A stretch of DNA of 64,000 nt from an uncultured archaeon (GCA_000965745.1 CP009479.1:224001-288000); one strand, 5' to 3'; shown: positions 3,584 through 49,917, counted from the stretch's first letter. Notes: generated by a model from the sequence alone, not told the origin. Numbers and translations: made by a program.

Positions 3584-3754
3584 CTTGTATCAACCTGGGT
3601 TGCAGTGTTTACCTGCTTTATTCTAATAATCGGATTCGATAAAAATATATTGCAGGAACAATGGTGCGAGTGTTGACAGGAAAGAATTGAACCTGGCACG
3701 ACATTTGTGCTCAATTGAAGATTTATGAAAAACTGGTACATGACCTACAATATG

Positions 3755-3896
3755 TGGGAGCACTGGGATTTGAACCCAGATCTACGGGTCTCTTCCCGGT
3801 TCATAGTTCCAGTCACTCATCATCAAGATCAGTTGACCCATAGCTAATCATACCCTGACTGGAGCCCGCTAGGATGCCTGACTACCCCATGCTCCC
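3755..3896 (-). tRNA. tRNA-Trp(CCA) with a ~69-nt intron at 37/38 (3790-3858)
   Basis: GGGAGCA acceptor, GCGGG-CTCCAG|A-CCCGT anticodon arm, CTGGG-TTCAAAT-CCCAG T arm; CCA not encoded. Confidence 0.95.
3790..3858 (-). ncRNA. Intron-encoded box C/D guide RNA for tRNA-Trp C34 and C39
   Basis: C (AUGAUUA), D' (CUGA), C' (AUGAUGA), D (AUGA). Guides AUGGGUC and UGACUGGA pair with the exon-intron junctions, and the N+5 rule lands on C39 and C34. Confidence 0.85.
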
Positions 3897-44455: not shown

Positions 44456-45142
44456 TTTTCCGTGATTTTACGGATCTGCTGTACAGATTATAACGTTTTT
44501 TATTACACCGAAACAAAAGGGCAACGCCCTTGATACATTTCCACTGACCAGCCTGTTCCCTTTAATCGATGCCTATTTTCCTCACGTTTTGGTCATAGAT
44601 ATGAAGAGATTTTCTATTATCGACATTTCTCTTGCGAATTGTATCCAGAAGATTCAATTGAAATACAAAAACTGTCGTGAAAAACACTCAACTTCTGAAG
44701 GTTTCTGGATTGTAAACTTCAAAAGAGTGCCGAATTCCAAGGCAATGACTCGCTTCACCATCATTTGTTCCTAAACAAGAGGCAAATGCTCAAAACCAAC
44801 AAAATAAAACCAGTAATGATGAGGGGTATCAGGATTTCATAAGTTGGATATACAGGGCATGCATACCATGTAGAAAGGTTTTATCGAGTGTAGGTCCATC
44901 CAAAATACACGCTGTTGGAGTATTAATTTCTGACCTCCTATTAAGGCTGACCCTATCGAAGCCAGGATGGTTCCAATATGTGTCCTTTGAAAGCTCATAA
45001 CAATATTTTCTTCTTTGTTATAACTAGACTGCCCATATTTTGTTCTATCTGCAGATTGAAGTGTCCGCTTCATAAGGAGCAAACTGGACGAATTCGCCGG
45101 AAGCAACGATGCACAATTGATAGTAGAGCCAAAAAAAAGCTA

Positions 45143-45233
45143 AGAGAGCCAATAGAGGGTTTTGAACCCCCGACCTGCTGATTACGAATTACATCAAATG
45201 CTTCCTTTGGCAAGTGCAAATAAGACTTGATGA
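45143..45233 (-). repeat. Unit A: tRNA-Thr 3' half plus shared non-tRNA flank
   Basis: 45143-45185 matches 49841-49883 at 38/43 nt, ending in the anticodon loop; followed by ATGCTTCCTTTGGCAAGTGCAAATAAGAC. Confidence 0.9.
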
Positions 45234-45464
45234 TGGGCGACCCCGCTACGCGGATGGAGGTAAGTACTCTGAAATGATGTGTCGACCTTTTTTCATTTGC
45301 ACCGATAGTGAACCAACCTAAATTGTTAGGCTGAAGATATAACTCGGTCAGCTTATTGATATAAATAGTGATTTCGCAAACCTTAGCTCAAGTCCCTATC
45401 GCGATCTCTTATCGGATCAAGGGATGCGATGCGCCTGGAAGGTTTGCAGAAAGGAGTGGTTAAA

Positions 45465-45851
45465 ATGCGGATTGCAAAGGAAGATGTTGACGTTAGGATG
45501 GAAATTCCCGGAGTTGTAGTAAGGCAGAAGAAAGAGTTTGGAGATGTTAGTGACTACCATAAGATCAGCGGTGAGTATTTCACTCTTGCAGCAGGAGTAG
45601 ATACTACTGAACTTTTTCAAGGGTTGGAAGGAAACCTTTGCCAAAGCCCTCATTGGGGATTTGTGTTACGCGGTAAAATTACTACTACAGACTCGTCCGG
45701 CGAAAAAGAGACAGTCCATGAGAATGACCTTTTTTACTGGCCTCCGGGACATAACGTAAAGGTCGATGATGATGCTGAGATAATCATGTTTAGTCCTCAG
45801 GATGAGCACAGCGAGGTCATAGAACACATGATCGCAAAGACCACACGTTAG
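45465..45851 (+). CDS. Cupin-domain protein
   Basis: CQSPHWGFVLRG and FYWPPGH motifs; GGAGTGG SD. Confidence 0.85.
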   Translation: MRIAKEDVDVRMEIPGVVVRQKKEFGDVSDYHKISGEYFTLAAGVDTTELFQGLEGNLCQSPHWGFVLRGKITTTDSSGEKETVHENDLFYWPPGHNVKVDDDAEIIMFSPQDEHSEVIEHMIAKTTR

Positions 45852-46115
45852 GTCTCTGTGTAAATTATCAAAATAAGAGTTATGATCTTCCCATCCATTC
45901 AGGGCATGGCCTGAGAAATTGAAGTGTGTCAGGACTATCCTCTGGTATGGGTGGATGAAATTCCATTCAATGTTCCATATTGCTGAGCTTATGCACTGTT
46001 ACTAATACATCGGTGGGCAGAAGTCGACTCGTCATGTTTATGAAAAGCACTTGAAATTCTGCAACATCCAAGAAGTTTACTTCGGAAACAGTTCATAAGT
46101 CCAATATGCCCAAAA

Positions 46116-46204
46116 AGAGGCCACTGTAGGGGTTTGAACCACAACATGCCTATTACCAGCTAAATCTGGATGCTTCATTTGACAAGTGTAATTGCAGACG
46201 ATGA
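46116..46204 (-). repeat. Unit B: more degenerate tRNA-Thr 3' half plus the same flank
   Basis: GCCACTGTAGGGGTTTGAACC...ATTAC, then ATGCTTCATTTGACAAGTGTAATTGCAGAC, colinear with unit A. Confidence 0.8.
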
Positions 46205-46291
46205 GATGCATAATTTCCCGTAAGATTATGTTAGATATTCACACCTGATTATACTCATTAGTTCTGTTGCCACTCCACAACAAGCAGGATG

Positions 46292-47097
46292 TCAAAAATT
46301 GTAAATTAACCGCACGCCAGTTTCAATTATTTTGTAACCAAGATTTTGACAAAGACTTATTGCAGCTTTATTTTCAGAGTCAACAAAAAGTGTAACAATT
46401 TTAGCATGGGATAGTGCAAGGTCGGTGAATTCCGAAACAATCTCTCTCGAATAGCCCCTTCTCCTATAATTGGGTAATGTTTCTACACCTGAAATGATCC
46501 AATTATGAGTTGCACGAGCATGAATTTGACCAACAGAGGCAAGTTCTCCATTATCTGCAAATATTCCGAATACAATTTCCTTTTCCAGGAAATCACCGGC
46601 TATTCTGATTTTCTCTGCTGTGACATTTCCATTTTCTTGATTTTGGAATGCTGCGTAGTCCAAAGCGTTCTTCCTGCTCAATCTCACTGCTCTTTTTGAA
46701 TTTGCTATACCTACTCGATTGTCAGAGAAGGCCATTATTAGTTCAGTTTCCACTTCGCACTTTTGAAGATACGATTTCAGAATGTCCGAATTCAATTAAT
46801 CGGTAGTTATAATTGAATGTTTCTTTGGAATCAGCTTTACATGAGATGGAATTGCAATTTTGTCGGAATGAGTATAGACCCAAAACAAGTTGTCTTCGAT
46901 TGCGTCAAACATAAAGAGGTATCCAATTACTTTCTCATCTTTATAAGAAACGTAGAGGTGTGCTCTCTCGTTGAAATCATCCTTGCAAAAATACAGCGTA
47001 TATGTACCTTTAACCGGGTCGTTCGTTATGATATAGCCTTCCAAGTCTTTTGACACATGTCTGACCTCCGTTGTAGTTACGCTGCATGCATCAACCA
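46292..47097 (-). pseudogene. GNAT acetyltransferase split by an in-frame TAA
   Basis: VETLPNYRRRGYS and NKAAI..C..LGY motifs; the two ORFs abut in one frame across TAA at 46796-46798. Confidence 0.75.
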
Positions 47098-47344
47098 TAC
47101 ATTCACGATCAATGAAAGCATTCAAGATGGAAATATCTTCTTGCAATGAGAAGGCGATAATTCTATGAGATCTATGCAAAGCACCATTCATGCCCCTTAA
47201 GCCATGATTTCTCATCTTCTCCACCACCTTTCTTGGCAGTGTTATTAGAAAAGAAGTTCCCCTTTTTGAAACGTGAGAAACGTCAATAAGTTCCTTTTCT
47301 GATATAGTTGGTAATATTACAATAAAATAAAGAAGTTTCAGGAA

Positions 47345-48133
47345 TTAGTAGGCTTGTACAAGCGAAAGGCTTGAGAGGGATTTGACAACCAAGCTTCTGT
47401 CATTATCACCATTATTATTTGAAGACTCATTTTCTCTGTATTCTCCATATAGTGCTATGAATTTTTCATCACATGTATAGAAATTTATCTCTGAATACAT
47501 GTCTTCTTTGGAGCCCAGAGCCAATATCACTATGAGCTCTGAGAGTATCTCTTTGTCTTTTCCGTGTCCATTCTCGTTAAAAAATTTTGAAATTGAACCA
47601 CCCTCAATCGCTTTTCTCAGCTTAGTTGAATCTTCAAGCTTTGCCTTAGAATCAATAGTGGGAAATAGAGCAGTTATCCTAATCATTATGCTGTGATTAT
47701 TGTCGCTAGCTAGATGTAATAAGTCCTCCTGAATTTCATCGAAGGACATACCCATAAGTGTGTTGCTAATGCTGTTAAAAGCAGACAAAACAAACTCTAC
47801 TCTATTTTTCTTTATGATTTCTCTGTCTTCTGCTAGCATTTTCTCGATATCTACCAATGCCTTGGCCTTTCCTCTGATATCAAGTGCGTCCCAACCTCTA
47901 TTAGATCTTTCAAGATGCTTAAGATGGTCTCTTACCTTTGCTGATAAAAGTGCAAATGCTTCAGCGAGAATCTCTTCGATTTCTACCAACACTCTGCGAC
48001 TCAACTTGATTTGTCGACTCTTAAAATCAGAAATGAACTCCAAAGCTTTCTTGTGTCTCTTCCTGTTCAGATAAACTGCGTCAAATGCTATGTTTGTATC
48101 TATGAATTTTCCGTCTGTTATTAGGACCCCCCC
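47345..48133 (-). CDS. PIN-domain protein with a long helical insertion (start unresolved)
   Basis: The open frame upstream of the tracked start gives KFIDTNIAF; also VLVEIEE, DKEILSE and FYTCDEKF, i.e. four candidate PIN acidic positions. Confidence 0.7.
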   Translation of the reverse strand, partial: GGVLITDGKFIDTNIAFDAVYLNRKRHKKALEFISDFKSRQIKLSRRVLVEIEEILAEAFALLSAKVRDHLKHLERSNRGWDALDIRGKAKALVDIEKMLAEDREIIKKNRVEFVLSAFNSISNTLMGMSFDEIQEDLLHLASDNNHSIMIRITALFPTIDSKAKLEDSTKLRKAIEGGSISKFFNENGHGKDKEILSELIVILALGSKEDMYSEINFYTCDEKFIALYGEYRENESSNNNGDNDRSLVVKSLSSLSLVQAY

Positions 48134-48847
48134 TCAATCAGGTATTGGCGGAATCTCTTTCAACCTTTCAACAAACTCTTTTCTTCCTTTAGAAAATTTC
48201 TCGGTTTCCCCTAATGACATTAATCTTAGCTCTGCAAACCGTCTTATCATAATTAGTTCATCCAGCTCATCCTTAACATAGGCGTAGATGATTACCTGAT
48301 AAATGAAAGATGCAAAAGAAAGAATTACTTTTTCTTCGACGCTCAGTTTGTTTGTTTTTGACAGAGCAAATGCTATGCTTCTCAAAAGATTTGTATACAG
48401 ATCGTAGTATGAAAGGAATAGTGCATCGTTAGTGTTCCAGGTTTCCTTCTCTTTAATATCTTTTAGGACCTCCGGTCTAAGCTTTTCGAGATTGGAAATT
48501 GATTCAATCACATAGTCTCTCCAAAGTTCGTTCTTTTCCTTTTCCGACATATCCTGCAGAAACTGATCCACATAATCGAATCTGTCATCTAATTCTTTTA
48601 TCTTCTCTTCATAATCATCAAGAATGGATTCGTTAGGTTCCTCAAATGATACTTCTGTTCTCATCAATTCAAGCATTATGCCAGCCAAGTTTTCATAGAC
48701 TGTTGTGCTCTTTTTAACGTAGTCTCTAATCAAGTCTTTGACGACTTTCCTCGCAATGTGGTCCCTCTTCATTTTCCTTTCAATTGAGTTTAGAGGCTTT
48801 GGGACTATTAAGCTTCTAAAATACTCATTATTACTAAGGACGGACAT
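48134..48847 (-). CDS. Hypothetical helical protein, partner of the PIN gene
   Basis: Charged helical ORF, likely ATG at 48847; its stop codon abuts the PIN frame. Confidence 0.7.
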   Translation of the reverse strand: MSVLSNNEYFRSLIVPKPLNSIERKMKRDHIARKVVKDLIRDYVKKSTTVYENLAGIMLELMRTEVSFEEPNESILDDYEEKIKELDDRFDYVDQFLQDMSEKEKNELWRDYVIESISNLEKLRPEVLKDIKEKETWNTNDALFLSYYDLYTNLLRSIAFALSKTNKLSVEEKVILSFASFIYQVIIYAYVKDELDELIMIRRFAELRLMSLGETEKFSKGRKEFVERLKEIPPIPD

Positions 48848-48905
48848 TCCTACTACATGCATATTAATCGATCTATTTACTTTAACCTTTTCACATAATG
48901 TTATC

Positions 48906-49599
48906 ATGCGAAACCTAAGAACTCCTTTGTGGCAATACAAGATAACCATTTTCTTCGTCTTAACTTATTGGGTCCTTGACCCTATTTTATACCTTCATTT
49001 TGGGAATGCTGACATATCCGGGGCTTCAAATGAGAACAAACGGCTTGTATTCTTTGCTGGGCCCTTCAGTTTCTCATAGGATTTTAATGCAGGAACTCCT
49101 TTTTTCGAGGCTCTAAAGGATGCTATTCTAAGTGGCAATTTCTGGATACCTTTGGCAGTTATACTCGCCGCTGAATTGATAGTACCTCATGGTTTCAAAA
49201 TTGGTTACCTAAAGTTTTCAATGGGAACTTCATATTTGTACGCCGTCATTTCGTCTTACCTTGTGTCTGCTTCCTACTGGCATTATTATTATAAGCATAC
49301 ACCTTCTCCCGGGACTTCCATCATAGCGTTTTCATTGGTTATTGTGTACTGGTTTTTTTCCATGTTACTGTTTACAACAAGGATCAGAACTGGTAGAACA
49401 CTGCAAGAATTCTTGAAAATTCTTAGGAGGTGTATTGTTATCTTTTTCAGGAATTTATATTGCATTCTTTGGATATATTTCTGGTAACGGAGCCGCCGTG
49501 CTTCATCTTCTTGGTTTTCTTTTCTTTGTTGTAATTACAGCATTTGCATCCCAGCTCTTAAAAATAAGAGGCCCAGATTTAGCAAAAAGGAAAAACTGA
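48906..49599 (+). pseudogene. Rhomboid-like membrane protein, disrupted
   Basis: In-frame TAG at 49077-49079 and a frameshift near 49420; PGTSII and HLLG segments at TM starts. Confidence 0.5.
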
Positions 49600-49844
49600 C
49601 ACGTTAAACGCATAATTGATTGTATCAAACTGCGAGATGCCCTTCTGAGTTCATAAGAAGCGATCCTATGCCATCTGGACACCTGAGTTGGTAGTTTGCC
49701 ATGTGGATTATCCAGAAGTGAGATGAGGGGAAAACTGACATCAAATTGTTTTTCAAAGCTACAAAAAGGTGAGAAGCTCCTGATTCCTCTTCTGTATTTA
49801 AATGACCACAGATATGATCCAATTAATTACATGAGTTAATAGAG

Positions 49845-49917
49845 AGCCACTGGAGGGTTTCGATCCCCCGGCCTGCTGATTACAAGTCAGCTGCTCTGCC
49901 AGCTGAGCTACAGTGGC
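49845..49917 (-). tRNA. tRNA-Thr(UGU)
   Basis: GCCACTG/CAGTGGC acceptor, GCTGA-CTTGTAA-TCAGC anticodon arm, U73; T loop ATCGAAA. Confidence 0.95.

Follow-up and report, generated by a model that had tools for sequence, protein, structure and literature searches.

The stretch of DNA analysed here (the window) comprises bases 224001-288000, 64 kb in all, of the complete 2.23-Mb genome (46% GC, labelled G000) of an acid-loving Thermoplasmata archaeon, a genome in which intron-containing tRNAs are present. Our subject is a low-GC island (44456-49843) that runs from an MFS transporter gene to an intact tRNA-Thr(TGT) gene and is divided by repeats, here called units, that join a partial tRNA-Thr to a conserved arm. 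In the composition profile, GC content fell to 0.36-0.43 across the island (~44.4-49.8 kb) compared with ~0.49 on either side, making it compositionally foreign. The tRNA-Thr(TGT) gene (49844-49917, minus strand; ARAGORN; Rfam RF00005, 66.4 bits) was the sole canonical tRNA recovered in the window by default scans and forms the anchor of the island, that is, an attachment site of the attB type. For comparison we used 100 other genomes of the same archaeal family, drawn from 20 genera (labelled G001, G003 etc.), of which G001, G002 and G003 share the genus of the source genome. The tRNA gene was 100% identical to its counterpart in G003 and 98.6% identical to that in G001. On its upstream side, a 3HCDH/ECH (enoyl-CoA hydratase) fusion gene and a 111-aa gene were syntenic in five relatives. 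On its downstream side, as a first-pass annotation of this DNA had anticipated, the cargo was different in every relative examined. The G002 contig stops ~245 nt past the MFS gene, before any empty site could be read, and a search for population variants returned only one other public contig with the cupin gene and outermost unit described below, 100% identical to the island.

Two units, A and B, lie within the island. In what follows, P denotes an arm of ~62 nt, O the 45-nt tRNA-Thr 3' half and P' a second arm of ~190 nt. Read in the sense of the tRNA (minus strand), unit B is located 3.7 kb downstream of the tRNA gene and unit A, the outermost junction, a further 0.97 kb beyond, giving a 4.7-kb patch made of two repeat-bounded blocks, one of 0.97 kb with a cupin gene and one of 3.7 kb. 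Unit A (45147-45251, minus strand), delineated by profile and alignment, consists of a tRNA-Thr 3' half with a CGT anticodon (45147-45191) and an arm (45192-45251). Unit B (46119-46224, minus strand) consists of a worn tRNA-Thr-like 3' half (46119-46163) and an arm (46164-46224) with both arm motifs of the unit family; the motif CTTACGGGAAATTAT lies at 46206-46220. The tRNA part of each unit runs from the anticodon loop to the 3' end (tRNA positions ~31-73 in unit A and in the unit family) and the resident tRNA has been left intact; both partial copies are in direct orientation and carry a common element arm.

Over 43 nt (45143-45185), the tRNA part of unit A was 88% identical to the 3' half of the resident tRNA, and 34 of 35 positions, the CGT anticodon included, matched the genome's tRNA-Thr(CGT). 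The equivalent part of unit B (46114-46156) was 60% identical to A. Beyond the tRNA half, and at an equal offset from it, the flanks of A and B were homologous, with a local alignment score of 31 compared with 13.6 ± 2.4 for dinucleotide shuffles (equalled by 1 of 2000). An exact 19-nt flank motif had two occurrences only in the window, and the flank of unit A had no further significant copy in the source genome. As a leave-out control, the unit profile was rebuilt without A and B and searched genome-wide. This profile recovered unit B at full length (36 bits, E = 1.3e-8) and scored unit A at 57 bits, compared with 53 for the bare tRNA half, reaching the proximal arm motif. Because the leave-out profile still detects both, their membership in a wider unit family is supported, with arms that have clearly diverged. 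The first-pass annotation had described a tRNA-Thr 3' half in A and B and a shared flank beyond it, and both descriptions were borne out.

It had further pointed to a possible third, very worn unit at 47193-47249, with three blocks separated by the units. Searches with nhmmer (E ≤ 10) gave no match there, and alignments of A and B to the island interior were no better than those of shuffled sequence, which reached A's best score in 178 of 200 trials and B's in 122 of 200, with the best spots lying elsewhere than 47193-47249. That segment falls where a broken GNAT-family gene begins, at its start codon and upstream edge. With no third unit, the repeats delimit two blocks, and no attachment site separates the GNAT gene from what had been termed a PIN module.

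The tRNA part of unit A is chimeric. At five diagnostic positions 5' of the T-loop (the anticodon plus four more) it is of CGT type, whilst 3' of the switch it has the base of the TGT locus, with A rather than T after TTCAAA, and shares its CTCT trailer with the resident gene. Judged from these positions, this is the pattern expected of a junction between a CGT-type attP and the attB of the TGT gene, with an exchange that would have fallen in or after the T-loop, and the switch points to site-specific exchange. The reading that A and B, each an arm joined to a tRNA half, are junctions of attachment-site type from a single family is supported.

Other roles for the units were considered. RNAalifold on 10 units returned only the pairing of the tRNA T-arm and part of the acceptor, with no structure in the arm, and the consensus energy of P' was 0 on both strands; P and P' were accordingly rejected as structured RNAs. 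Reading frames through A, B or the tRNA half held only antisense tRNA translation and no integrase-like coding, and micro-ORFs (open reading frames) in the arms were interrupted by stops in several units. As a candidate integrase remnant, a 67-aa ORF ending in unit A was discarded, its similarity coming only from residues encoded by the tRNA half; the source genome's tRNA-Pro and tRNA-Met integrases do read antisense into their tRNA half. The arm was also dismissed as the promoter and 5' end of an integrase gene of this genome, with no match in the 200 nt upstream of any of its seven PF00589 integrase genes.

The block between the units (45252-46118, ~0.9 kb) holds a single cupin gene (45429-45851, plus strand), matched by Pfam Cupin_2 below the cut-off. 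Its true start is probably 45465, judging from the length of its homologs (128 aa). The protein was 75-83% identical to members of a very large family (thousands) of 128-aa proteins, and the named homologs were all bacterial (Reyranella, Rhizobium sullae, Gemmatimonadaceae, Sulfuritalea); a search of the 100 genomes of the host family did not find the gene. On this distribution, it looks like a recent transfer from a bacterium to an archaeon. The larger block opens with a broken GNAT-family acetyltransferase gene (46292-47227, minus strand; Pfam Acetyltransf_1 and FR47), which a single in-frame TAA (46796-46798) splits into contiguous ORFs of 143 and 167 aa in the same frame. Its sole non-identical homolog was one 268-aa protein, whose N-terminus resembles the 143-aa ORF (62% over 100 aa) and whose C-terminus resembles the GNAT part.

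Next to it lies a two-gene module of unassigned function (47345-48949, minus strand), encoding proteins of 271 aa (48134-48949) and ~262 aa (47345-48130). In G019, a 70% identical module has both genes intact and side by side; it occupies a low-GC patch of 2 kb (G019:C1:382500-384700, 36-38% GC) that is not near any tRNA or unit. The gene beside the G019 module has a GS-x-GDSDIDLLV motif and looks like a minimal nucleotidyltransferase. In the island, the second module gene has GGG where G019 has a GTG start, leaving it without a canonical start codon, and a run of seven Gs (minus strand) lies between the two genes (48125-48136). Only nine homologs of the module were found in 5.8 billion proteins, and neither protein matched a family in Pfam, NCBIfam or PADLOC. 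The final cargo gene is represented by membrane-protein fragments of 113, 111 and 54 aa in differing frames (48738-49599, plus strand, from the ORF list), the probable remains of one ~260-aa gene; their only homologs were weak and lie in ~260-aa open frames of G100 and G064. The 'PIN' and 'rhomboid-like' labels previously given to this block drew no support from Pfam, NCBIfam or PADLOC. The PIN likeness of the 262-aa protein is confined to motifs (IDTN near the N-terminus, TCDEKF near the C-terminus), its AlphaFold model (pLDDT 54) being too poor for a structure search, and the membrane fragments had no match to Rhomboid or any other Pfam family. The cupin gene stands on the strand opposite to the GNAT gene and the two-gene module.

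R1, a sequence-only covariance model of the unit, recovered full-length units, each a ~62-nt arm plus a 45-nt tRNA-Thr half, in at least 21 of the 100 other family genomes (11 of 20 genera) and on a metagenome contig, the genome and relatives having been scanned with a unit profile as the first-pass annotation had suggested. Most were located behind tRNA-Thr(CGT). A search of the source genome with unit A led to tRNA-Thr(CGT) at 1.09 Mb, behind which come one full unit, one additional half and one worn unit, ~2.5 kb apart; this arrangement was also present behind the counterpart gene in relatives. Close behind the source gene (1093901-1094000), the full unit is followed, after ~11 nt, by an arm-less half with the same CCCTATATGGTT trailer, which may be either a ~51-nt tandem duplication or an 'empty' cassette. 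Within the arm, a proximal motif lies ~25 to 9 nt before the tRNA half (consensus CTTGTCAAAAGAAGCAT) and a distal motif ~62 to 45 nt before it (ATCnGGAAAnTGA...ATTTT).

In relatives, the array takes the form of the tRNA followed by repeats of P'-cargo-P-O. P' was conserved 3' of the tRNA gene and of internal units in at least nine genomes. It carries ACTTTCCTG, an inverted copy of the P motif CAGGAAAGT, and in this respect the two arms appear to resemble the arm-type protein-binding sites of an attP. The resulting P-O-P' junctions (~300 nt) were 70-90% conserved between cassettes and genomes. Cassettes measured 0.7-2.5 kb and held one operon each. VapBC toxin-antitoxin pairs were the main cargo, with three recurring pairs (PIN plus antitoxin, Pfam) alongside a DUF998 membrane protein, a glyoxalase-like protein and a 601-aa protein.

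The order of cassettes varied between genera. For example, the vapBC2 cassette is the one nearest the tRNA in G018, takes second place in G013, G057 and G101, and lies between two units on the metagenome contig. The stop codon of vapC1 lies 54-56 nt before the unit in four genera, and vapBC3 is inverted relative to vapBC1 and vapBC2. From O onward, the first cassette of G017 was 93% identical to the third of G019, two genomes from different genera whose shared core genes are ~70% identical. In G013, G057, G101 and the metagenome contig, downstream homology begins no more than seven bases after O despite differing upstream neighbours. These identities rest on BLAST blocks, semi-global tables of arm identity having proved too noisy for use. 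The reordering, the constant vapC1 spacing, the 93% identical cassette and homology starting at O argue for cassettes being discrete O-to-O mobile modules. The variable number and order of small, integrase-free cassettes between units, which the first-pass annotation had named as support for its proposal, was therefore found, in relatives. Scans of metagenomes and species genomes yielded further arrays only in Thermoplasmata metagenome-assembled genomes (MAGs), none with an integrase. Extra matches to the tRNA-Thr half in MAGs were mostly tRNA genes themselves and were set aside. One contig binned as 'uncultured Solibacteraceae bacterium' (CAYWXL010000074.1) had an exact match to a 27-nt unit pattern plus a tRNA-Thr-half match and is probably a misbinned Thermoplasmata contig.

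The tRNA-Thr(TGT) gene is also an insertion hotspot in G048, G001 and G095. In G048, a 44-nt half bounds an island of 4.55 kb behind this gene, which has no integrase and encodes MFS, TrmB, metallo-beta-lactamase-fold and PadR proteins. In G001 (contig G001:C9) the tRNA gene is followed by a 4.4-kb element in which a stop divides a 430-aa-type integrase gene (288 + 145 aa) and which also encodes a 392-aa protein and a DUF3644 protein; the core of this element is the 14-17 nt at the extreme 3' end of the tRNA, and its arm is unrelated to those of A and B. In G095, an insertion sequence (IS) transposase and an integrase fragment lie behind the gene.

We then considered where a recombinase might be encoded. 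No PF00589 integrase was present in the 64-kb window, consistent with the earlier description of the locus as integrase-free, and the nearest lies ~56 kb past the window end, ~70 kb from the island. Island ORFs contained no recombination or transfer genes (Pfam, NCBIfam, PADLOC), and tblastn with the genome's seven PF00589 integrases detected no remnant in the island or to the left of A. Homologs of these seven proteins were absent within 10 kb of units at 14 loci in 13 genomes, and no integrase was present on the other unit-bearing contigs examined. An integrase elsewhere beside the same flank, which had been predicted, was found nowhere that was searched. The sole PF00589 match of G017 (96% complete) is Xer-like, and G016 has an Xer-like gene plus a fragment. 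The unit site had no exact-pattern match in IMG/VR, and no autonomous element with the same attachment site was found in the source genome, the relatives' loci, two metagenome contigs or IMG/VR, bearing in mind that MAGs are often without mobile elements. With no integrase near the arrays, the recombinase would most simply be supplied in trans by an unbinned plasmid or virus.

Taken together, we consider it probable that the island preserves, in fossil form, a stack of two or more small, integrase-less inserts, similar to cis-mobilizable elements (CIMEs), placed serially into the 3' half of tRNA-Thr(TGT) by site-specific recombination. Each insert would end, on the side away from the tRNA, in arm P and a copy of O, and a new insert, perhaps arriving as a circular intermediate, would enter beside the tRNA and displace older ones outward. 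The recombinase, lying neither in the cassettes nor beside the arrays, would be a tyrosine-type integrase acting in trans from a plasmid, virus or other element. The system at the TGT locus is now dead, B being badly worn and the GNAT gene, second module gene and membrane gene broken. Since both units and most cargo genes have decayed, the TGT locus is a fossil and not a working array. The low GC of the island and a cargo that is either absent from relatives or bacterial-like are in keeping with serial insertion. The first-pass annotation's observations were in this way confirmed in part and its interpretation supported in part: attachment-type units and cassette variation bear out its unit-bounded cassettes, whilst the lack of any integrase beside the flank means that serial capture by a trans-acting integrase is something we infer rather than observe.

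Several observations weigh against this reading. Under the leave-out profile, the arms of A and B match the family weakly, with a gain of ~4 bits beyond the tRNA half for A and, for the flank of B alone, 9 bits (E = 5 genome-wide). No P' arm was found at the TGT locus, no unit-bounded cassette elsewhere was found to carry any of its cargo, and the other copy of the two-gene module, in G019, lies away from tRNA genes. The search for a recombinase with a matching arm was negative, which leaves action in trans to be inferred, and the same tRNA in G001 harbours an integrase-bearing element. Moreover, the resident tRNA is trailed by ~25 nt that are similar to the sequence beyond the outer partial copy in G001, a resemblance not predicted by a simple history in which the newest insert lies next to the tRNA; the two loci may share an old flank or, alternatively, an end of P' type.

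The element in G001 keeps alive the alternative that the first-pass annotation had itself set out, the erosion of larger elements. Here, A and B would be the outer ends (attR-type scars) of at least two tandem integrase-carrying elements, plasmids or viruses, from which the integrase and most genes were later deleted. We regard this as possible, on the doubtful side. At the same tRNA, the integrase gene of the 4.4-kb G001 element is already broken by a stop and G095 retains an integrase fragment with an IS transposase; the TGT-locus cargo is visibly decaying and the source genome has several integrases of tRNA-targeting types. However, the G001 element has a short 14-17-nt core and an unrelated arm, tblastn revealed no integrase remnant in the island or left of A, neither an integrase nor a fragment lay within 10 kb of family units in 13 related genomes, and cassettes recur as O-to-O modules with constant ends, all of which count against erosion.

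Somewhat less credible, and offered tentatively, is a dedicated cassette-capture system of the Thermoplasmata, comparable to a chromosomal integron in its workings though not in its construction. In it, tRNA-Thr would serve as the dock, single-operon cassettes would bear a composite P-O-P' site, and a recombinase encoded elsewhere would insert, excise and reshuffle them, with bacterial genes such as the cupin captured too. That recombinase could be a host enzyme of the Xer-like type, because some array-bearing genomes show only an Xer-like gene.

It is also conceivable, but improbable, that the ~300-nt P-O-P' junctions act as portable homology, with cassettes reordered by homologous recombination after DNA uptake and no dedicated recombinase today. 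The length of the junctions and their 70-90% conservation between cassettes and genomes would suit such a process, as would arrays with no integrase nearby and the array-bearing genomes G017 and, bar a fragment, G016, which lack a mobile-element integrase. Homologous recombination nevertheless leaves the origin of the first tRNA-half duplication and of the arm unexplained. The inverted arm motifs, the onset of cassette homology within a few bases of O and, in particular, the CGT/TGT switch of unit A at the T-loop, which indicates site-specific exchange, also argue against it.

Integrons, including the chromosomal superintegrons rich in toxin-antitoxin cassettes (e.g. in Vibrio), provide the final comparison. 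The arrays share with them single-operon cassettes in line, one distal site for each, a variable order and, in relatives, frequent toxin-antitoxin cargo. A true integron-like platform, with a dedicated integrase and promoter at the tRNA, promoterless cassettes and folded attC-like sites, would account for an anchor at one end and for toxin-antitoxin-rich arrays in relatives, but is very improbable given that no integrase lies beside the tRNA or in the window, conserved housekeeping genes occupy the upstream side of the tRNA, the arm is without conserved secondary structure, and the cassettes are whole operons with cargo on both strands. The integron-like analogy drawn by the first-pass annotation hence failed on the three defining features tested (an adjacent integrase, a folded attC-like site and uniform cargo orientation). 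In contrast to integrons, there is no adjacent intI, no folded attC and, from the orientation of the cargo on both strands, no common promoter, whilst a tRNA gene serves as anchor. The resemblance is one of layout only, a functional analogy at most and not membership.

The closest known concept for the proposed stack of integrase-less inserts is tandem accretion at a tRNA attB involving integrase-less cis-mobilizable segments, as described for the ICESt1/ICESt3 family of streptococci (PMC5704250; ICEberg 2.0, PMC6323972). CIMEs are bounded by attachment sites, lack an integrase, are stacked at one attB and are presumed to rely in trans on the integrase of a related element (PMC5704250). The cassettes are likewise integrase-less, bounded by direct repeats of attachment-site type and in tandem at one attB, with no recombination or transfer genes inside those of the island. 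They differ in being far smaller (0.7-2.5 kb, one operon), archaeal and located at tRNA-Thr, and in having P and P' arms conserved across many genera with no autonomous parent found.

Proviruses and plasmids integrated in tandem are known at archaeal and bacterial tRNA genes (PMC6563490), and in Prochlorococcus tycheposons have built tRNA-anchored islands in which partial tRNAs are dispersed (bioRxiv 10.1101/2020.12.28.424599). Reuse of the tRNA attB, older inserts pushed outward, partial tRNAs at old junctions and decay are common to both of these and the TGT locus. However, those elements carry an integrase or its recognisable remnants, whereas the unit-bounded arrays examined here have neither. 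Capture of genes by archaeal chromosomes has also been linked to 'suicidal' integrases of SSV type, whose gene is split in two on integration so that its fragments flank the element (PMC7253208). These too are archaeal elements at tRNA genes that are trapped after integration, but no integrase-like coding flanks A, B or the tRNA in our island. We regard the TGT locus as a decayed example of a real, and probably undescribed, form of tRNA-anchored accretion. To our knowledge, tRNA-anchored stacks of integrase-less cassettes have not been described in this lineage.

Further partial tRNAs were apparent in the source genome. Within the window, tRNA-Trp (3754-3896, minus strand, with a 69-nt intron) is accompanied by a single 29-nt partial copy at 272-300, which matches the segment from T-arm to 3' end at 26 of 29 positions, confirming the parallel with tRNA-Trp that the first-pass annotation had pointed out. 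The 3.45 kb bracketed by the pair have a GC content of 42-44%, contain small ORFs and lack an integrase; the region looks like a second small tRNA-anchored island. Elsewhere, a genome-wide scan placed tRNA-Lys(CTT) halves at 312926, 328612, 331269 and 1186719, a tRNA-Leu(CAG) half 2.4 kb behind its own gene and a 5' piece of tRNA-Leu(TAA) 2.3 kb from its own gene. Small islands bounded by attachment-type sites are a general trait of this genome.

As a worn example, the TGT locus contributes little that is not seen in the better arrays at tRNA-Thr(CGT). For annotation, copies of a tRNA half joined to a conserved arm mark cassette borders and explain patches of orphan or broken genes. If cassettes are indeed moved in trans, they would provide a compact route for the exchange of single operons between genera of acidophilic archaea. 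The traded cargo would then include toxin-antitoxin pairs, small enzymes and even a gene whose product is ~80% identical to bacterial proteins, and the arrays would represent a functional counterpart of integron arrays.

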